A stretch of 64,000 nt of DNA, taken from assembly GCF_988242995.1 (NCBI RefSeq), contig NZ_OZ547043.1. The stretch is one strand, 5' to 3'. The first letter of the stretch is position 1. Each line of letters opens with the position of its first letter. The translations under genes and the position numbers were made by a program. The notes beneath the pieces are model-generated. The model had not been told where the DNA came from and searched no databases. It saw only the letters and a list, made by a program, of their open reading frames with translations. Positions 1 through 11,372 of the stretch are shown in pieces.

Positions 1-195
1 ATCCAGTGAAGACACGAGGGGATTTTCTCCGCTTCCTTCTGCCTGGCGGCGGGCGATTTCACCGCGCATGGCGGTTACGATAAATCCGGCATTGCTTTCA
101 CCGTCCAGCTTAACGGATTCCATCCCTTGCATAACATCTAGTGGGACTCTGACAGTTGTCAGTTGTGATTTTGCGTTTTTGTTAGCCGTTGCCAT
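1..195 (-). CDS. Ribbon-helix-helix (Arc/CopG-like) putative repressor, 3'-truncated by window start
   Basis: Reverse-strand ORF starting at ATG 195-193 with AGGAG RBS; translation MATANKNAKSQLTTVRVPLDVMQGMESVKLDGESNAGFIVTAMRGEIARRQ... fits the RHH pattern (N-terminal beta-strand TVRVP then two helices). Not in the ORF track because it runs off the window. Confidence 0.5.
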   Translation of the reverse strand, partial: MATANKNAKSQLTTVRVPLDVMQGMESVKLDGESNAGFIVTAMRGEIARRQAEGSGENPLVSSLD

Positions 196-1491: not shown

Positions 1492-3239
1492 AACTGGCAC
1501 CGAACTTAAAAAAACAGCCACGCGACAGACTGACAGAGGTAATCATCTTTGCAGGTAGTGATGCGTGGAGCCATGCGAAAGAGTGGCGGGAATGGGCGGG
1601 TAAACATATTGCCGCCGACGATGTGCCGCCTGTCGTGCTGGCTGATGAGCAACTGAAAAATATCACCGATTACCGGATCATTGATGAAGATCGTCAGTGT
1701 GTGCGTGTTTACCGCGCAGGACATATCACAGAGCACAGCATGACGCAGATTGTTACGTTACTGGCTGTGGCTGGAGTGAAGACCGTACACGAATACGCGG
1801 GGATTACTGACACCAGCCCAGTGGATTTATCCGAGCAGTTGCCGCGACTCAAAGAGGAATGCGAGCGTGGGGAAAGTCTGGTGCTTAATCTTCCGACGAA
1901 GCAAAAGGCGCAACTTTCACAGATGGCAGACAGTGAACGTGCACAACTACTTGCCGATCGCTTTGATGGTGTGTGTGTTCATGCAGAAAGTGAAATCGTC
2001 CACGTATGGCGCGGCGGGGTATGGTGTCCGGTCAGCACAATGGAGCTGAGCCGCGAAATGGTGGCGATCTATTCAGAGCACAGGGCCACGTTCAGCAAAC
2101 GTGTAATCAATAACGCCGTGGAAGCGTTAAAAGTTATTGCCGACCCCATGGGGGAGCCGTCCGGTGATTTGCTACCGTTCACTAATGGTGTGCTTAACCT
2201 GAAAACGGGGGAATTTTCTCCGCACTCGCCGGAGCACTGGAGCACCACGCACAATGGCATTGAGTACACGCCACCAGTAGCAGGGGAAAACATCCGCGAT
2301 AATGCGCCAAATTTCCATAAATGGCTTGAACATGCTGCAAGAAAAGACCCGCGCAAGATGATGCGTATATGTGCCGCGTTATACATGATTATGGCGAACC
2401 GCTACGACTGGCAGATGTTCATTGAGGCCACCGGAGACGGGGGAAGCGGTAAGAGTACATTTACCCATATTGCCACCCTGCTTGCTGGCAAACAGAACAC
2501 CGTAAGCGCGGAGATGACATCACTCGATGATGCAGGAGGGCGCGCGCAGGTTGTCGGGAGTCGTCTTATCGTCCTTGCCGATCAGCCGAAATATACGGGG
2601 GAAGGCACGGGCATCAAGAAAATCACGGGAGGCGATCCCGTTGAAATTAACCCGAAATATGAGAAGCGATTCACGACGATAATAAGGGCGGTGGTACTGG
2701 CAACCAATAACGACCCGATGATCTTTACCGAACGGGCCGGAGGTGTGTCACGCCGTCGGGTGATTTTCCGGTTCGACAACATTGTAAGGGAGGACGAAAA
2801 AGACAAGGAATTACCGGAAAAGATAGCGGCAGAAATCCCCGTAATTATCCGCCGCTTGCTGGCTAATTTTGCTGACCCTGAAAAGGCACGGGCTTTATTA
2901 CTGGAACAGCGTGACGGTGATGAAGCTCTGGCAATAAAGCAGCAAACGGATCCGGTTGTTGAGCTTTGCGCGGCGCTGGAGTTTCTGGAGGAAGCTCGTG
3001 GGCTAATGATGGGCGGTGGTGGTGACACCGTGAAGTACACGACCAGAAACAGCCTTTACCGTGTCTATATGGCCTTCATGGCATACACAGGAAAGGGGAA
3101 ATGTTTGAGCGTGAATGAGTTCGGAAAGGCTATGAGGTCAGCGGCGAAAGTTTACGGATATGAATATATTACGCGAAAAGTTAAGGGAGTCACGCAGACC
3201 AACGCAACGACTACTGATGATTGCGATGCGTTTTTATAA
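1488..3239 (+). CDS. Replication primase-helicase of satellite/PICI type (P4 alpha-like, D5-family P-loop NTPase)
   Basis: 583-aa ORF with Walker A motif GDGGSGKST in the central domain; followed directly by an iteron cluster, as in P4 alpha/crr. Confidence 0.7.
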   Translation: MKLAPNLKKQPRDRLTEVIIFAGSDAWSHAKEWREWAGKHIAADDVPPVVLADEQLKNITDYRIIDEDRQCVRVYRAGHITEHSMTQIVTLLAVAGVKTVHEYAGITDTSPVDLSEQLPRLKEECERGESLVLNLPTKQKAQLSQMADSERAQLLADRFDGVCVHAESEIVHVWRGGVWCPVSTMELSREMVAIYSEHRATFSKRVINNAVEALKVIADPMGEPSGDLLPFTNGVLNLKTGEFSPHSPEHWSTTHNGIEYTPPVAGENIRDNAPNFHKWLEHAARKDPRKMMRICAALYMIMANRYDWQMFIEATGDGGSGKSTFTHIATLLAGKQNTVSAEMTSLDDAGGRAQVVGSRLIVLADQPKYTGEGTGIKKITGGDPVEINPKYEKRFTTIIRAVVLATNNDPMIFTERAGGVSRRRVIFRFDNIVREDEKDKELPEKIAAEIPVIIRRLLANFADPEKARALLLEQRDGDEALAIKQQTDPVVELCAALEFLEEARGLMMGGGGDTVKYTTRNSLYRVYMAFMAYTGKGKCLSVNEFGKAMRSAAKVYGYEYITRKVKGVTQTNATTTDDCDAFL

Positions 3240-3249
3240 AAAATGGCAA

Positions 3250-3485
3250 TGGTTATCTACCTTGTCTACCTGACTGAAAGAAAATACTTTTATTTCAATG
3301 TATTAATGCAGGTAGATAACTATTTTTCACTGTCTACCTGTTATCTACCTTATCTACCCATTTTTGTAGACAGGTAAGGAGACGGGTAGAGATGAGGTAG
3401 ACAGCTATTTGGGGCTGTCTACCTCCCTGAAACCCGCGCCATTACTGGCCTGATAACTAATCAGGTAGACAAGGTAGACAAGGTG
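3250..3485. repeat. Iteron cluster (about 11 copies of 8-bp GGTAGACA / TGTCTACC motif in both orientations); putative replication origin
   Basis: Seen directly: cttgtctacc, caggtagataac, ctgtctacctgttatctaccttatctaccc, gtagacaggt, gaggtagacagc, ggctgtctacctcc, caggtagacaaggtagacaagg. Confidence 0.7.
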
Positions 3486-3528
3486 GTGGTGCACAAAAAA
3501 CTTTTTAAACGAGGGGGTAAAAATAAAA

Positions 3529-3786
3529 ATGCACACATCAGGAAAACTGAACAAACATATAAAGCCACATTACCGCGCCCTTGATATGGCTGAACACTGG
3601 CTAAGGGTGGCGATTAAGGCAATAGACCGCAACGCCGGGGAAGGATACGCGAAAGCACATCCCGAACTGATAAGCGCATTCATGACAACGGCGGCTGCAA
3701 ACTTTGCCACGCTGACCGAACGGGAGATTGCTGAAGCGGAGGAAGTGACAACAATCAATATTAAGTCCGGAGAGCAGGCAGCATGA
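3529..3786 (+). CDS. Hypothetical protein (85 aa)
   Basis: ORF with GGGGGT RBS; stop overlaps next start. Confidence 0.4.
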   Translation: MHTSGKLNKHIKPHYRALDMAEHWLRVAIKAIDRNAGEGYAKAHPELISAFMTTAAANFATLTEREIAEAEEVTTINIKSGEQAA

Positions 3787-4448: not shown

Positions 4449-5489
4449 ATGGTTGATTTATATTCGCCTACTCAGCTTGTACAGGTAGTTAATGCTGTAG
4501 ATGTACAAAAACAACTAAATGCGTTATTTACCAGTTTGTTTTTTACTCGCTCGGTAATGTTTGAATCGCGCGATATTATTCTTGATACAATCGACGATCC
4601 AAATATCCCAATTGCAGCGTTTTGTTCTCCTATGGTGGGTAGTAAAGTTTCACGTGACGAAGGGTACGAATCAAAAACAATTCGTCCAGGCTATATGAAG
4701 CCGAAAAGCAGCATTGATCCAAATAAGTTAGCTGTGCGCCCTGCTGGTGTGTCACCTGAGCAATACAATGCTTTTGGGGCGCGTAATATTAAAGTTAAAC
4801 AGGCGATTGTAAATCAGGCTAAAGCTATTCGTGCACGTATTGAATGGCTTGCTGTTCAGGCAATCACAACGGGGAAAAATATCATTGAGGGCGATGGTAT
4901 TGAACGTTATGAGCTGGACTGGAATATAAAACCACAAAATATCATCACTCAGTCTGGCGGTACTGAGTGGTCAGGTAAGGATAAAGAAACTTTTGATCCA
5001 AATGATGATATTGAGAGCTACGCAGAATTTAGTGAGGGCGTCACTAATATCATCATTATGGGTGGTAATGTATGGAAGAAATACCGTTCATTCAGAGCGA
5101 TAAAAGAGGCTTTGGATACCCGTCGTGGTTCTAATTCCGAACTGGAAACGGCCCTTAAAGACCTTGGTGATTCGGTGAGTTTTAAAGGGTATATGGGCGA
5201 TGTTGCGATTGTTGTTTACAGCGGGCGTTATACCGACGAGGACGGAACAGAAAAACATTTCCTTGATCCTGATTTGATGGTGCTTGGCAATACGGCTCTT
5301 CAGGGGATTGTCGCCTATGGCGGTATTCAGGATCCGGAGCTAATCCGAATGGGGCTGACTAAAGCCGAACTTGCACCGAAAAACTATATTGTGCCTGGTG
5401 ATCCGGCTATTGAATATGTGCAGACACATTCAGCACCACAGCCAATACCGGCCCGCATCAATCGTTTTGTTACCGTTCGCATTGGCTAA
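4449..5489 (+). CDS. Major capsid protein, lambda gpE family (divergent paralog, about 50 percent identity to lambda E over the C-terminal half)
   Basis: Start chosen at MVDLYSPTQL with AAGAGGA RBS (the track ORF begins upstream at 4236). Shares blocks ITQSGGTEWS, LDTRRGSNSELETA, GDVAIVVYSG with lambda E. Confidence 0.8.
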   Translation: MVDLYSPTQLVQVVNAVDVQKQLNALFTSLFFTRSVMFESRDIILDTIDDPNIPIAAFCSPMVGSKVSRDEGYESKTIRPGYMKPKSSIDPNKLAVRPAGVSPEQYNAFGARNIKVKQAIVNQAKAIRARIEWLAVQAITTGKNIIEGDGIERYELDWNIKPQNIITQSGGTEWSGKDKETFDPNDDIESYAEFSEGVTNIIIMGGNVWKKYRSFRAIKEALDTRRGSNSELETALKDLGDSVSFKGYMGDVAIVVYSGRYTDEDGTEKHFLDPDLMVLGNTALQGIVAYGGIQDPELIRMGLTKAELAPKNYIVPGDPAIEYVQTHSAPQPIPARINRFVTVRIG

Positions 5490-5498
5490 GGGGGAGCA

Positions 5499-5840
5499 AT
5501 GGCTACTCATTACACTGAACTCATGGCTGGCACTGAAGCACTGGTGACTACGCTGGGGATATTTTCAGCTAATAAAGGGGTAATTCCTGCATTTACGCCA
5601 CTGATGCAGGAAGATGCAACAGGTGCACTGGTGGTATGGGATGGTTCGAGCGTAGGTAAAGCGGTTTATGTTTCCGCTGTACAAATCGACACCGCGAAAA
5701 AAACACAGGCTCAGGTCTATAAGACAGGTGTCTTAAATGTTGATGCTCTGAACTGGCCTGAGTCTGTTAAAGAACTGTCAGTAAAGGTTGCAGCGTTTGT
5801 TGGCTCAGGTATTTCTGTTCAGCCGCTGGCTCGTGTGTAA
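5499..5840 (+). CDS. Head decoration protein, lambda gpD family
   Basis: 113-aa ORF; TPLMQEDATGALVVWDGSS...AAFVGSGISVQ aligns with lambda D TPLMLDTSSRKLVAWDGTT...TAFAGTAISIV. Confidence 0.7.
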   Translation: MATHYTELMAGTEALVTTLGIFSANKGVIPAFTPLMQEDATGALVVWDGSSVGKAVYVSAVQIDTAKKTQAQVYKTGVLNVDALNWPESVKELSVKVAAFVGSGISVQPLARV

Positions 5841-5851
5841 AGGGGGATACA

Positions 5852-6235
5852 ATGCAGAATGATTACAATGACCTTAAGCCAATTGCCGAAATGATGTACC
5901 CGAATCCAGCTGTAGAGGAATTAAAAGCTATCGCTGACAAAATGTGTTTAAGCGAGCGCCTTGTTGATATGAATCAGGTGATGGAAATTACAACCCTGAG
6001 TCGTCGTACACTGCTAAACCTTGAGGCTAGTGGAGAGTTCCCGGAGCGTGTGCAGGTTACGGAAGGGCGTAAGGCCTGGTATTTAAGTGAAGTGATCGAC
6101 TGGATAAATAATATTCCTCGCGCTTCTGAATATTGCCGCGTACCTGTCCCAAAAAAGCCAGATGCGGCGCTATGCCTCAAGATTGAGCGTGTACGCCGCA
6201 ATGCACGGGATGGTCGCTATAAGCTGATTGGTTGA
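5852..6235 (+). CDS. AlpA/excisionase-like HTH regulator
   Basis: 127-aa ORF; central segment MNQVMEITTLSRRTLLNLEASGEFPERVQVTEGRKAWYLSEVIDWINN resembles AlpA-family phage regulators. Confidence 0.55.
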   Translation: MQNDYNDLKPIAEMMYPNPAVEELKAIADKMCLSERLVDMNQVMEITTLSRRTLLNLEASGEFPERVQVTEGRKAWYLSEVIDWINNIPRASEYCRVPVPKKPDAALCLKIERVRRNARDGRYKLIG

Positions 6236-6397
6236 TGAAATTAGGGCCCGCTCTGGCTGGCGGGTCCTTTCCGGTGATCCAGAACGTTACGGGGCGTCAG
6301 GCGCGCAGATTCTTGCTATTTATGACAATTTTCTGCGATTTGCCGTTTCCGTTCTTCTTCCTCGTAACTTAGTGTTTTTACTAGAAATACCCTCTAA

Positions 6398-6448
6398 AAA
6401 GAAAGGAAATGACAGGTGCTGAAAACAGGCTTTTGGGTCTCCGTCATT
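6398..6448. terminator. Stem-loop (aaaggaaatgac ... gtcatttccttt) followed by T-rich tract
   Basis: 12-bp inverted repeat read directly, after the alpA-like gene. Confidence 0.4.
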
Positions 6449-6687
6449 TCCTTTCTCATTTTTATCTAAAAGTAAGCATCGAGGCCACCCCAAATGCTTA
6501 TAGAGGTTATTGTGTCACTATGCGTACTGTTCAGGATTTAAAGTAGCAAGACATCTAGTTGCTTGCAGTTTTGGCGAATGATGTGAGGTTCTCTATAACA
6601 GATAATGTAACAAGTTACTGATATATTCTGTTATGGTTGACTTTAAATTTTGTTGCTCCTTCAATGAATTATTGAGGGGTAAAAATT

Positions 6688-6713
6688 AGGCGTGATAAGA
6701 ATCGATCACGCCT
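6688..6713 (-). terminator. Rho-independent terminator for the 438-aa gene
   Basis: aggcgtgat/atcacgcct 9-bp stem immediately 3' of the minus-strand stop, followed on that strand by AATTTTTA. Confidence 0.45.
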
Positions 6714-6718
6714 ATTGT

Positions 6719-8035
6719 TTATCTTGAAGAAATTTTAGGCAGGCTTTTTAAAAATAAATCTTTATTTCTACTTGCATCAGTTAAAAGTGTTAGGAATATT
6801 TTATCTGTAGGAGTGCATGTGCTCTTGTTTAACAGTAATTCACCAAGTTTCTGTAATCGAGAGAATTGCCCATCCTCTTGGATTCTGTGACGAAGTGTAC
6901 TATCATTTTTAATAACATCAACAAATGCAGAAACCATGTTAATATCAAAGTGTTCAAACATTTCCAATATTAAAGGTGCAGCCCCATTTGAATAAAAATT
7001 CTTCCTTCCATACTGATAGCTGAAACCACGATGGCCAACATAAGTTTTTGTAATGGCTGAAACAAATTCAACAATATTATCTTCAGGGACGAAACTCGAG
7101 AATGGTAATAATTGGGTTACGATTTTTTCCTCTTCTGACCAATTATCTAAAGACTCGGTGAGTTTATTAATGAGAGGCTCAATAATAACTTTTCGGGATG
7201 CAGGGCTAATATACATCAGTCCATCTACCAATAGTATGAATTGTTGTGCCTTCTCTATCTTATTGTTGTTTCCTGAAACTAAATACTTGTCAAATTGTTG
7301 GCCGACTTTACGTCGGTCGTCTTTTGAAAGTAATGTCCATAAAATAGGTGCGCAAAATTCAATGTTGTTTCTGAGTTCACTTGATATATTGGATGAGCAG
7401 TATGTGCCAAAAAAACGAGAGGATAATTCACTGATATAAATTGCAGGTAGATCTGAAAAGGCTTGCTTAACTGCCAGACTATTTTTATTAAATGTTGCCG
7501 AATCCATTTCTGAAAGATATGTAGTTATATCTATGATGGCTGGTGGAAACTCTTTAGAAAGAACGTATTTATTACAATCATTAATCAGGTTCACTACTTT
7601 GATTAAATCAGGGTCGCTACTTTGTGGATGTCCACCAAATAGATTCCTGGTTTCTCTAGCTTGTTGTAATAGTTTCTGACCTTCTCGATCGATAACTCCT
7701 ATTTTAAATGCTCCATCTATTAAATCAAAGTCGCTCACATAATCCTGAAAATCTTCATACGTTTTAATTTCTTTTTTTTGTTTACACTCTTTGTTGAATA
7801 GATCTAGGCTACGATGAATTATCTTTTGACGTAAATCATCAACTACAGCATTCCAGTAAGCAGTGATGGCACTTCTATAACCTTTTACAGGAAGAACTCT
7901 TATTGCTTCTGAAATATATGGGCAGTCAACTACATCATGCCTCACAGTTGAGAGCGCAGTTTGTAACAATGTAACTTCTGTAGAGTCTAGTGGAGTTGGC
8001 TGCACTAAATGAGAACTTATCTCTGTACCCTTCAT
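6719..8035 (-). CDS. 438-aa hypothetical protein with N-terminal HEPN-like Rx5H motif (R130-N-L-F-G-G-H136); candidate abortive-infection/defence protein
   Basis: Long ORF on the opposite strand in a visibly AT-rich 2-kb block with its own upstream region and terminator; no similarity to phage structural or housekeeping proteins that I recognise. Confidence 0.5.
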   Translation of the reverse strand: MKGTEISSHLVQPTPLDSTEVTLLQTALSTVRHDVVDCPYISEAIRVLPVKGYRSAITAYWNAVVDDLRQKIIHRSLDLFNKECKQKKEIKTYEDFQDYVSDFDLIDGAFKIGVIDREGQKLLQQARETRNLFGGHPQSSDPDLIKVVNLINDCNKYVLSKEFPPAIIDITTYLSEMDSATFNKNSLAVKQAFSDLPAIYISELSSRFFGTYCSSNISSELRNNIEFCAPILWTLLSKDDRRKVGQQFDKYLVSGNNNKIEKAQQFILLVDGLMYISPASRKVIIEPLINKLTESLDNWSEEEKIVTQLLPFSSFVPEDNIVEFVSAITKTYVGHRGFSYQYGRKNFYSNGAAPLILEMFEHFDINMVSAFVDVIKNDSTLRHRIQEDGQFSRLQKLGELLLNKSTCTPTDKIFLTLLTDASRNKDLFLKSLPKISSR

Positions 8036-8391
8036 TTCAGGATTTTCCTATTCTTTTCCATTTTTCTACTCTATTGAATTTGAAAAAGATATCAAGTTCG
8101 TTCTTGCCAGTTTTAAGTGGAAAATTTGATGTTACCTTATTGAGATAAGGCAGTTCTCTATAACCTATTGTTATTAATTATTTTTATTTTTTTCCAATTC
8201 AGATGTTTAGGGCTAAGAAGTTAAGTGAGAGTTCACAGCAAAACTGCTTCTAGTTCCTCACCGAGGAGCAAAAGGTTAAGACAGCGTACTTTGTATTGCA
8301 CAATGTATTGCAGAACCTTCTTTCGAAAGCTACAACAATCAATTTTATATTGAAAATTCAATCATATCCTTTCGATATTGACTCATATAAC

Positions 8392-9179
8392 CCAAGCATG
8401 AGGTGAATCCGCAGATGACCCTGCGTCGCCTGCCGGATGAAGATCCGCAGAATCTGGCGGACCCGGCTTACCGCCGCCGTCGCATCATTATGCAGAACAT
8501 GCGTGACGAAGAGCTGGCCATTGCCCAGGTCGAAGAGATGCAGGCAGTTTCTGCCGTGCTTAAGGGCAAATACACCATGACCGGTGAAGCTTTCGATCCG
8601 GTTGAGGTGGATATGGGCCGCAGTGCGGCCAACAACATCACGCAGTCCGGCGGCACGGAGTGGAGCAAGCGTGACAAGTCCACGTATGACCCGACCGACG
8701 ATATCGAAGCCTACGCGCTGAACGCCAGCGGAGTGGTGAATATCATCGTGTTTGATCCGAAAGGCTGGGTGCTGTTCCGTTCCTTCAAAGCCGTCAAGGA
8801 GAAGCTGGATACTCGTCGCGGCTCTCATTCCGAGCTGGAGACAGCGGTGAAAGACCTGGGCAAAGCGGTGTCCTACAAGGGGATGTATGGCGATGTGGCC
8901 ATCGTCGTGTATTCCGGACAGTACGTGGAAAACGGCGTCAAAAAGAACTTCCTGCCGGACAACACGATGGTGCTGGGGAACACTCAGGCACGCGGTCTGC
9001 GCACCTATGGCTGCATTCAGGATGCGGACGCACAGCGCGAAGGCATTAACGCCTCTGCCCGTTACCCGAAAAACTGGGTGACCACCGGCGATCCGGCGCG
9101 TGAGTTCACCATGATTCAGTCAGCACCGCTGATGCTGCTGGCTGATCCTGATGAGTTCGTGTCTGTACAACTGGCGTAA
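8392..9179 (+). pseudogene. E: Major capsid gene E, 5'-truncated (about the first 96 codons missing)
   Basis: Translation from ...PKHEVNPQMTLRRLPDEDPQNLADPAYRRRR... to ...DPDEFVSVQLA is near-identical to lambda gpE residues about 97-341; upstream sequence is unrelated AT-rich DNA. Confidence 0.85.
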
Positions 9180-9995: not shown

Positions 9996-10574
9996 ATGGC
10001 CATAAAAGGTCTTGAGCAGGCCATTGAAAACCTCAGCCGTATCAGCAGAACGGCGGTGCCTGGTGCCGCCGCAATGGCCATTAACCGCGTTGCTTCATCC
10101 GCGATATCGCAGTCGGCGTCACAGGTTGCCCGTGAGACAAAGGTACGCCGGAAACTGGTAAAGGAAAGGGCCAGGCTGAAAAGGGCCACGGTCAAAAATC
10201 CGCAGGCCAGAATCAGGGTTAACCGGGGGGATTTGCCCGTAATCAGGCTGGGTAACGCGCGGGTTGTCCTTTCGCGCCGCAGGCGTCGTAAAAAGGGGCA
10301 GCGTTCATCCCTGAAAGGTGGCGGCAGCGTGCTTGTGGTGGGTAACCGTCGTATTCCCGGCGCGTTTATTCAGCAACTGAAAAATGGCCGGTGGCATGTC
10401 ATGCAGCGTGTGGCCGGGAAAAACCGTTACCCCATTGATGTGGTGAAAATCCCGATGGCGGTGCCGCTGACCACGGCGTTTAAACAAAATATTGAGCGGA
10501 TACGGCGTGAACGTCTTCCGAAAGAGCTGGGCTATGCGCTGCAGCATCAACTGAGGATGGTAATAAAGCGATGA
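9996..10574 (+). CDS. Z: Minor tail protein Z
   Basis: 192-aa ORF matching lambda gpZ. Confidence 0.9.
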   Translation: MAIKGLEQAIENLSRISRTAVPGAAAMAINRVASSAISQSASQVARETKVRRKLVKERARLKRATVKNPQARIRVNRGDLPVIRLGNARVVLSRRRRRKKGQRSSLKGGGSVLVVGNRRIPGAFIQQLKNGRWHVMQRVAGKNRYPIDVVKIPMAVPLTTAFKQNIERIRRERLPKELGYALQHQLRMVIKR

Positions 10575-10661
10575 AACATACTGAACTCCGTGCAGCCGTA
10601 CTGGATGCACTGGAGAAGCATGACACCGGGGCGACGTTTTTTGATGGTCGCCCCGCTGTTT

Positions 10662-11372
10662 GTGCACAGAAAACCCCCAGCTAGGCTGGGGGTTCCGGAA
10701 AGCTTTCAGCTTTGAGCCAGTTATTAAAACCCCTTTTGATTTGTTAAAACACCTTGCGGTCTGGCAACTGCAAGTGTCAAACAAGAAATCAAAAGGGGGT
10801 CCCAATGGGGAACGAAAAGAGCTTAGCGCACACCCGATGGAACTGTAAATATCACATAGTTTTTGCGCCAAAATACCGAAGACAGGTGTTCTACAGAGAG
10901 AAGCGTAGAGCAATAGGCAGTATTTTGAGAAAGCTGTGTGAGTGGAAAAGCGTACGGATTCTGGAAGCTGAATGCTGTGCAGATCATATCCATATGCTTG
11001 TGGAGATCCCGCCCAAAATGAGCGTATCCGGGTTTATGGGATATCTGAAAGGGAAAAGCAGTCTGATGCTTTACGAGCAGTTTGGTGATTTGAAATTCAA
11101 ATACAGGAACAGGGAGTTCTGGTGCAGAGGGTACTACGTCGATACAGTGGGTAAGAACACGGCGAAGATACAGGATTACATAAAGCACCAGCTTGAAGAG
11201 GATAAAATGGGAGAGCAGTTATCGATTCCCTATCCGGGCAGCCCGTTTACGGGCCGTAAGTAACGAAGTTGGATGCAAATGTCAGATCGTGTGCGCCTGT
11301 TAGGGCGCGGCTGGTAAGAGAGCCTTATAGGCGCATTTGAAAAACCTCCGGCTATGCCGGAGGATATTTATT
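10662..11372 (+). mobile_element. IS200 (IS200/IS605 family), about 711 bp, with terminal hairpins
   Basis: Contains the Y1 transposase gene; left-end hairpin cccccagctaggctggggg and right-end hairpin ctccggctatgccggag; boundaries inferred from interruption of lambda U. Confidence 0.8.
10805..11263 (+). CDS. tnpA: IS200 transposase TnpA (Y1/HUH)
   Basis: MGNEKSLAHTRWNCKYHIVFAPKYRRQVFY...HIHMLVEIPPK... matches IS200 TnpA (152 aa). Confidence 0.9.
   Translation: MGNEKSLAHTRWNCKYHIVFAPKYRRQVFYREKRRAIGSILRKLCEWKSVRILEAECCADHIHMLVEIPPKMSVSGFMGYLKGKSSLMLYEQFGDLKFKYRNREFWCRGYYVDTVGKNTAKIQDYIKHQLEEDKMGEQLSIPYPGSPFTGRK

Follow-up and report, generated by a model that had tools for sequence, protein, structure and literature searches.

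The window analysed here is a stretch of 64,000 nucleotides (contig NZ_OZ547043.1, assembly GCF_988242995.1) that begins within a satellite resembling phage-inducible chromosomal islands (PICI-like) and crosses, at position 8391, into the 3' part of the major capsid gene (E) of a lambdoid prophage. Close to this junction, an open reading frame (ORF) with an ATG start on the minus strand (6719..8035) encodes a protein of 438 amino acids (aa) that is identical to RefSeq WP_016247987.1, labelled 'hypothetical protein'. An initial annotation, made from the letters alone, had placed a gene of exactly this length and orientation at this very position and proposed it as a candidate anti-phage defence gene. 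The neighbours it named, an alpA-like gene and a truncated lambda E gene, agree with the RefSeq annotation of the identical copy in E. coli EC931, where a helix-turn-helix (HTH) AlpA-like gene lies to the left and a 'major capsid protein, incomplete, missing N-terminus' to the right. Among 5426 complete E. coli genomes, 11 carry the 1969-bp block containing the gene at 99.5 % identity or more, each time on the chromosome.

The block stands out by its composition. Between 6401 and 8400 every 400-bp window has a GC content of 0.32-0.37, while the left flank reaches 0.44-0.50 and the right flank 0.56-0.60, which bears out the low-GC island described initially; the gene itself has 34.9 % GC. It is bordered on either side by 255-300 bp of untranslated sequence. 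The terminator hairpin noted in the initial annotation is there as well, a 10-bp stem followed by ATTTTT reading from 6714 to 6687, and terminator-like sites in the region number 4 against 1.3 expected from shuffled sequences. Promoter-like sites are not enriched (6 in the region, 7.3 in shuffles), so that the sigma-70-like candidate upstream of the gene is weak evidence. In the flanks, neither tandem repeats nor a conserved structured element nor an Rfam match above noise was found. Comparison with a Cronobacter ortholog (80 % aa identity) gives a nonsynonymous divergence (dN) of 0.15 with synonymous sites (dS) saturated; at the level of sequence, the gene is real and under purifying selection. 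A pseudogene or chance ORF was rejected on the same values and on the existence of hundreds of full-length homologs.

RefSeq annotation of E. coli EC931 and EC4 reveals a PICI-like satellite of ~11.3 kb (L001 2645-13968 in EC931). Its genes are, in order, an integrase, an HTH gene, DUF2971, SWIM, Icd-like and DUF4222 genes, a primase, a protein that binds single-stranded DNA (SSB), major capsid and head-decoration genes of its own, the AlpA-like HTH gene and, on the opposite strand, the gene for the 438-aa protein. The satellite is integrated within the lambda-E-like major capsid gene of the lambdoid prophage, which it splits into a 246-bp 5' piece and a 789-bp 3' piece, the 5' fragment lying 11.3 kb upstream of the 3' fragment. 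The two satellite-prophage junctions have in common only a core of ~9 bp, CC(G/C)AAGCA(C/T). Paired TGTATTGC repeats stand ~80 bp from the right junction, where they are kept in a sister satellite carrying the validated defence gene DS-40 (see below), and they also adjoin the integrase gene at the other end (L001 2770-2795); they are probably arm-type binding sites of the integrase. The capsid and decoration genes supplied by the satellite are E-like (window 4449-5489) and D-like (5499-5840), respectively, and the same split-capsid arrangement is seen in EC931, EC4 and MDR_56. That a satellite disables the capsid gene of its host prophage while providing a homolog is unusual; a literature search found no paper describing a satellite that splits a host prophage capsid gene and brings a homolog.

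Comparison with sister satellites shows that the 438-aa gene is exchangeable cargo at the attachment site (att)-proximal end of the satellite. In a megablast search with 5500-9000 as the query, sister satellites match up to ~6466, and those inserted at the same E site match again from ~8357; coverage breaks accordingly, H88 aligning in two pieces and H89 covering only query positions 1-967. In the alignments the left break comes directly after the inverted repeat at 6400-6456 and the right break at ~8290, at the start of the TGTATTGC repeats. The single-gene block described initially thus stands, with limits (6423-8391) that were slightly too wide. What occupies the slot differs from one satellite to the next: insertion sequence (IS) elements in strain E04, the small terminase subunit (TerS) and a hypothetical gene in strain 167, and, in the MDR_56 satellite, which is of the same type and sits at the same insertion site, a 311-aa gene 98 % identical to WP_097419291.1. 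The latter, also called D295 or DS-40, is an experimentally validated DefensePredictor system (PMC13092281). The locus therefore combines conserved borders, unrelated alternative genes and at least one gene nearly identical to a validated defence gene, as expected of a mobile-element hotspot, and the position of the 438-aa gene is allelic with that of a proven defence gene. Both occupy the cargo slot of the same satellite family at the lambda-E site, between the terminator of the AlpA operon and the att arm; DS-40 is, however, an unrelated protein with an N-terminal transmembrane segment, so that the two are allelic by position and not homologous. These data strengthen the original argument that accessory loci of satellites are frequent sites of defence genes.

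The protein itself appears to be built of two parts (Table 1). Its N-terminal domain is predicted to consist of helices 18-28, 39-50, 53-75, 77-83, 93-99, 102-111, 117-134 and 144-159. The R-x5-H motif noticed initially is confirmed: RETRNLFGGH occupies residues 127-136 and yields R130-x5-H136. Among 34 close homologs, R127, R130, G135, H136 and P137 are invariant (RETRNxFxGHP), and of 44 sequences whose identity falls as low as 19 %, 39 retain R130, 37 retain N131 and 40 retain H136. The spacing is x5 or x6, distant relatives having RNxxSAAHP (Rx6H), which is within the Rx4-6H definition of HEPN nucleases. An AlphaFold2 model computed from the 34-sequence alignment (mean predicted local distance difference test score 85.3, predicted template-modelling score 0.66) is all-alpha with 23 helices. 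In this model the N-terminal helices adopt a four-helix up-and-down fold, and in the sequence the Rx4-6H motif has a polar residue after the arginine; the HEPN reading of the domain is thus supported. The HEPN-like fold that had been predicted around the motif is therefore seen in the model, and none of the contrary computational outcomes named beforehand was obtained. Two details of the initial description needed correction: the helical HEPN region is there and extends over about 165 residues rather than ~120, and the large C-terminal part that follows it is not featureless, its ~270 residues forming a predicted ARM/HEAT-like alpha-solenoid. Foldseek comparison of the model with the PDB gave weak ARM/HEAT matches only. 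The solenoid is presumed to be a sensor or oligomerisation domain.

Table 1. Features in and around the cargo slot, in window coordinates
Feature	Position	Strand	Basis or remark
Perfect 14-bp inverted repeat (AGAAAGGAAATGAC/GTCATTTCCTTTCT)	6400..6456	+	Closes the AlpA-like operon and bounds the module on its left; kept in sister satellites
Exchangeable cargo module	6461..8290	.	Sister satellites collinear to ~6460 and from ~8290, other genes between
Intrinsic-terminator-like hairpin	6687..6714	-	10-bp stem (5 G-C pairs), 8-nt loop, then ATTTTT; 4 nt past the stop codon
CDS, 438 aa, member of PHROG 27609 and Pfam PF27235 (AF_1680)	6719..8035	-	ORF list, RefSeq, profile match
C-terminal all-alpha solenoid (ARM/HEAT/MIF4G-like), about residues 170-438 (predicted)	6722..7528	-	
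N-terminal HEPN-fold domain, about residues 1-165 (predicted)	7541..8035	-	Predicted helices
Putative catalytic motif R130-N131-L-F-G-G-H136 (Rx5H)	7628..7648	-	C-terminal end of helix 117-134 and start of the next loop
Sigma-70-like promoter candidate TTGATA-16-TAGAGT	8068..8095	-	33 nt 5' of the ATG, in a 255-bp AT-rich leader
Satellite right end	8292..8399	+	Two TGTATTGC repeats (8292-8315); att core CCCAAGCAT (8391-8399) joins the 3' capsid part
Major capsid gene (lambda-E-like) of the host prophage, 3' fragment	8391..9179	+	Called 'major capsid protein, incomplete, missing N-terminus' by RefSeq

The protein belongs to a large family, all of whose members are named 'uncharacterized' in the databases. 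It matches PHROG 27609 (function unknown) over its entire length (E=2.3e-189, residues 1-438 against profile positions 1-418 of 418). All of the 119 top homologs that have a Pfam record, including the 93 %-identical cluster representative, carry PF27235 (AF_1680), a recent family of unknown function; membership was taken from precomputed records, the Pfam copy scanned here not containing PF27235. A search of a large protein collection gave 857 clusters at E<=1e-3, of which the best 120 show 51-93 % identity and lengths of 420-460 aa; Enterobacteriaceae, Xanthomonadaceae, Campylobacterota and numerous metagenomes are their sources. When 1.84 billion representatives were searched with a profile, 526 clusters at 50 % identity emerged, with many full-length relatives of 410-495 aa. 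The protein itself has no match in NCBIfam or in the local copy of Pfam-A, and sequence searches of the PDB, by single sequence and by profile, gave noise only. Neither these searches nor the two function-unknown families place the protein in a non-defence family, the outcome that had been named as speaking against a defence role.

Could the family then be made of HEPN proteins that have nothing to do with defence, such as a housekeeping or regulatory factor binding or processing RNA, or a silent scaffold, carried on mobile elements by chance? The uniform lack of a functional name and a few distant relatives without the arginine or histidine would fit. Against this speak the patchy distribution within E. 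coli (11 of 5426 genomes), the low GC content, the cargo positions on mobile genetic elements, the slot that the gene shares, by position, with a validated defence gene, and a strictly conserved nuclease motif in which the polar residue following the arginine is kept as well. We regard a non-defence function as quite unlikely.

The genomic contexts of relatives are variable and often mobile. The 80 %-identical copy of Cronobacter is located at the extreme end of a capsid-forming satellite that encodes TerL, TerS, connectors, portal, protease and capsid, and it adjoins dusB-fis. Copies in Xanthomonas adjoin IS, SymE toxin and type IV secretion system effector genes, a Campylobacterota copy adjoins a TIR-beta-propeller protein and three toxin-antitoxin genes, and one further copy is flanked by IS elements and a Gp49/HTH pair. 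Across the seven contexts examined there is neither a conserved neighbour gene nor an MNT gene; for three distant relatives the contigs were too short to inform. As a single case, on a 2.7-kb contig (L152), the distant member P0155 has a gene (1794-2591) of the Hypoth_Ymh family (PF09509) 10 bp downstream; we take this family to be another of the HEPN superfamily, and the two genes could form a two-HEPN operon.

In this setting the protein might be a weapon or regulator in conflicts between satellite and helper or between satellites rather than a host immunity factor, that is, a HEPN nuclease triggered by the helper lambdoid phage or competing elements, or acting on their transcripts; it would then tilt packaging and late gene expression towards the satellite. 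The satellite has indeed split the capsid gene of the host prophage and carries its own capsid and decoration genes, relatives are also the cargo of another satellite type in Cronobacter, and the case of HepS shows that tuning of HEPN nucleases to structural proteins of lambdoid phages is possible (PMC13043305). However, the slot is exchangeable and its cargo in sister satellites is unrelated, including a generic defence gene, so that the 438-aa gene is not part of a conserved life-cycle kit of the satellite. In addition, many relatives reside on chromosomes or in prophages, with no satellite in the vicinity. A role in such conflicts is therefore unlikely.

Were the protein instead an addiction toxin that keeps the satellite or island stable, any anti-phage effect being secondary, it would need an antidote, which could be a small RNA, a small protein or its own C-terminal domain. 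RNA antitoxins do control HEPN proteins of the AbiF type, and untranslated flanks of 255-300 bp lie on both sides of the gene. Yet the flanks hold none of the repeats, Rfam families or structured elements sought there, the seven contexts show no MNT or other conserved partner, and size and architecture are far from those of the ~130-aa HepT toxins, all of which makes an addiction module very improbable. Finally, the protein might serve the phage or satellite directly, by counter-defence or host takeover, e.g., by degrading host RNAs or an immune RNA signal during the lytic cycle. Eleven IMG/VR viral contigs hold relatives, copies with 42-54 % identity stand beside tail and tape-measure genes within prophage structural regions, and the family is contained in PHROGs. 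On the other hand, tblastn against 50,697 sequenced phage records gave no match to the protein, which means that it is essentially absent from virulent phages, and the gene has a promoter region and a terminator of its own and runs against the satellite operons, a layout typical of morons expressed in lysogens. This last alternative appears extremely remote. Each of these alternatives accounts less consistently for the exchangeable slot, the solitary gene and the distribution than does a defence function.

The closest described analogue of the protein is PD-T7-3, isolated from ECOR30 and annotated as 'HEPN' (Vassallo 2022, PMC9519451). It has since been renamed DARNA, an E. coli HEPN tRNA anticodon nuclease activated by single-stranded DNA (ssDNA) (Puteikiene 2026, bioRxiv 10.64898/2026.02.22.705581). 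According to the same work, its HEPN domain comprises aa 1-159 and carries R117x4H122 at the end of a helix, with a loop (121-134) after it, while the C-terminal aa 160-456 are helical and resemble the HEAT protein Pds5. DARNA forms a dodecamer that is activated by 'CT' ssDNA presented by the phage SSB and recognised via F368 and W406; it then cuts tRNA anticodon loops, leading to abortive infection. It is a single gene found in a P2 prophage hotspot (bioRxiv 10.64898/2026.02.22.705581). The likeness covers a single gene of about 450 aa, an N-terminal HEPN domain of ~160 aa with Rx(n)H at a helix end before a loop, an all-helical HEAT/Pds5-like C-terminal domain of ~280-300 aa, at least 22 helices in all, and carriage in a mobile-element defence hotspot. 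PD-T7-3 is also the sole PADLOC model that the protein touches, albeit below threshold. The differences are the motif spacing (x4 vs x5, and x6 in distant relatives), the size (456 vs 438 aa) and the carrier (P2 prophage vs PICI-like satellite). DARNA (RCP48690.1; PDB 9tra) was compared here through its published description and the PADLOC profile, and its entries 9tra-9tre were absent from the matches to local PDB copies.

With the cloning primers of Vassallo 2022 (Table S8) as the starting point, the P2 hotspot, between the tail-fibre assembly and sheath genes, was located by blastn in E. coli genomes, and IMG/VR was scanned with the forward primer; among 65 primer-bounded hotspots with 109 ORFs of 380-520 aa, a screen by length, motif and hidden Markov model did not recover DARNA. 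One locus (L049) was rejected as the DARNA locus, its exact 2183-bp spacing being coincidental, and the DefensePredictor supplements list only remote relatives of PD-T7-3. In terms of sequence, the linkage of the 438-aa protein to DARNA is marginal. That it works like DARNA is nonetheless the best-supported analogy.

Two other stand-alone HEPN proteins of prophages provide precedents. HepS is a solo anticodon nuclease of the Gifsy-1 prophage, a small tetrameric protein of one domain (R100-H105) that the tail-tip protein J triggers (PMC13043305), and Tha is a HEPN system of S. aureus prophages (PMC11087260). Both resemble the 438-aa protein in being lone HEPN proteins borne by mobile genetic elements, without a partner gene and with an Rx4-6H site; they are constitutively present, and a phage component activates RNA cleavage that aborts infection. 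HepS lacks the ~270-aa solenoid, and no sequence match to HepS or Tha was seen. With the HEPN superfamily at large (Anantharaman et al. 2013) the protein shares the predicted four-helix fold and the conserved R-[polar]-x3-5-H. None of the Pfam, NCBIfam or PADLOC profiles for Csm6/Csx1, Cas13, HepT-MNT, AbiA/AbiD/AbiF/AbiJ, ApeA, RnlA/LsoA or PrrC matches it. Unlike other HEPN families, it comes without a CARF, MNT, reverse transcriptase or ABC-ATPase partner, and its partner domain is the predicted ARM/HEAT-like solenoid. The hallmarks of a type II/VII toxin-antitoxin system of the HepT-MNT kind are absent: the protein has 438 rather than ~130 aa, and there is no MNT neighbour in any context.

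Taken together, the 438-aa protein is, on balance, probably a stand-alone HEPN RNase acting as an abortive-infection or defence effector, whose solenoid would sense a cue of infection. DARNA/PD-T7-3, HepS and other HEPN proteins of abortive infection, from which dimerisation, RNase activity and its substrate, the trigger and the phage-resistance phenotype are all inferred, suggest the following mechanism by analogy. The protein would be expressed constitutively from its own promoter and held inactive. Two HEPN domains would pair in such a way that R130 and H136 of each protomer build a composite, metal-independent RNase site. Binding of an infection-specific cue to the C-terminal helical domain, either a phage protein or a nucleic acid presented by the phage, would open this site, and RNA would be cut, probably in tRNA anticodon loops or in another RNA of the translation machinery. 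Translation would halt and the infection abort, thereby protecting the clone along with its resident satellite and prophage.

Several observations weigh against such a function. In the sequence data, neither the protein nor its 44 relatives match the Pfam HEPN families (Abi_2 AbiD/AbiF, DUF4145, RiboL-PSP, Swt1 and others) at E<=0.1, and the DUF4145 and Abi families, to which the initial annotation had pointed as possible kin, have to give way to DARNA/PD-T7-3 as the nearest described analogue. In the search of defence-system profiles that had been suggested, no PADLOC model is matched significantly, and the single match, to PD-T7-3 (PDLC04108), is sub-threshold: residues 40-132 align with positions 21-117 of the profile at E=0.023 and 11.9 bits. 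The relative P0104 touches the same model (E=0.0013); the two matches are in register and confined to this one model, though too weak for any safe cut-off, and the other 29 of the 31 family members tested leave it untouched. Literature searches with the accession, PF27235 and AF_1680 gave no relevant paper and no experimental support for any member, and the family is listed in none of the papers or defence databases searched. Several of the genomic contexts are mere 'variable regions' without recognisable defence genes, two of them being uninformative. Lastly, a small clade of five distant relatives lacks the arginine, the histidine or both, so that catalysis is not universal in the wider family. 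These proteins (P0164, P0166, P0169, P0195 and P0200) are full-length, at 444-464 aa, with, for example, ALISGYLASAR; they may be catalytically dead paralogs or regulators.

A broader proposal, possible and still rather doubtful, is that PF27235/AF_1680 and the relatives of 420-500 aa make up a large unrecognised clade of DARNA-like sensors in which a solenoid receptor switches on a HEPN anticodon nuclease. The wider clade comprises the 526 clusters mentioned above and 157 AFDB clusters, from Bacteria and Archaea. The solenoid would then be a diversifiable receptor for phage-specific nucleic-acid or protein cues other than the 'CT' ssDNA presented to DARNA by SSB, and the satellite would deploy the protein to guard a lysogen whose prophage it has disabled by splitting the capsid gene. 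Should a resistance phenotype be confirmed, the protein would represent a widespread, previously unlisted single-gene HEPN system missed by PADLOC 2.0, the Pfam-A HEPN models and NCBIfam. The DARNA design of a HEPN head and a helical-repeat sensor would then extend from one E. coli system to a superfamily of Bacteria and Archaea. In addition, the AlpA-distal end of these E. coli satellites would stand out as a defence hotspot, where DS-40 is already found and whose slot could be mined for others. No established concept would be overturned, since HEPN abortive-infection nucleases in mobile-element hotspots are already well established.

A second possible cargo region lies at the integrase-proximal end of the satellite (L001 4291-5600), its last bases reaching window positions 1-22. 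It holds the DUF2971 gene and, on the opposite strand, the SWIM zinc-finger gene, both of which weakly match candidate systems of PADLOC (E=1e-4 for PDC-S31 and 5e-5 for PDC-S62). In ECOR46, contig QOYF01000088 carries PD-T7-1 at 2183-3533 and DS-40 at 10328-11263, a spacing that fits one such satellite with defence genes at both ends. Past the IS-disrupted end of the satellite in E. coli E04 (L136 9488-10968), a 182-aa 'HEPN domain-containing protein' that matches the PADLOC models CARF_HEPN and PD-T4-2_B (E=8e-6 to 2e-4) is encoded beside a DUF262 gene. It is a further HEPN gene close to this slot and may lie inside or outside the element.

Further into the prophage, a 169-aa ORF (MGNEKSLAHTRWNCKYHIVFAPKYRR...) at window 10754-11263 (plus strand) sits among the head-tail and tail genes and looks, by eye, like a TnpA of the IS200/IS605 family. 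Since it is missing from the otherwise collinear prophage of EC931 (L001), the window comes from a different strain.

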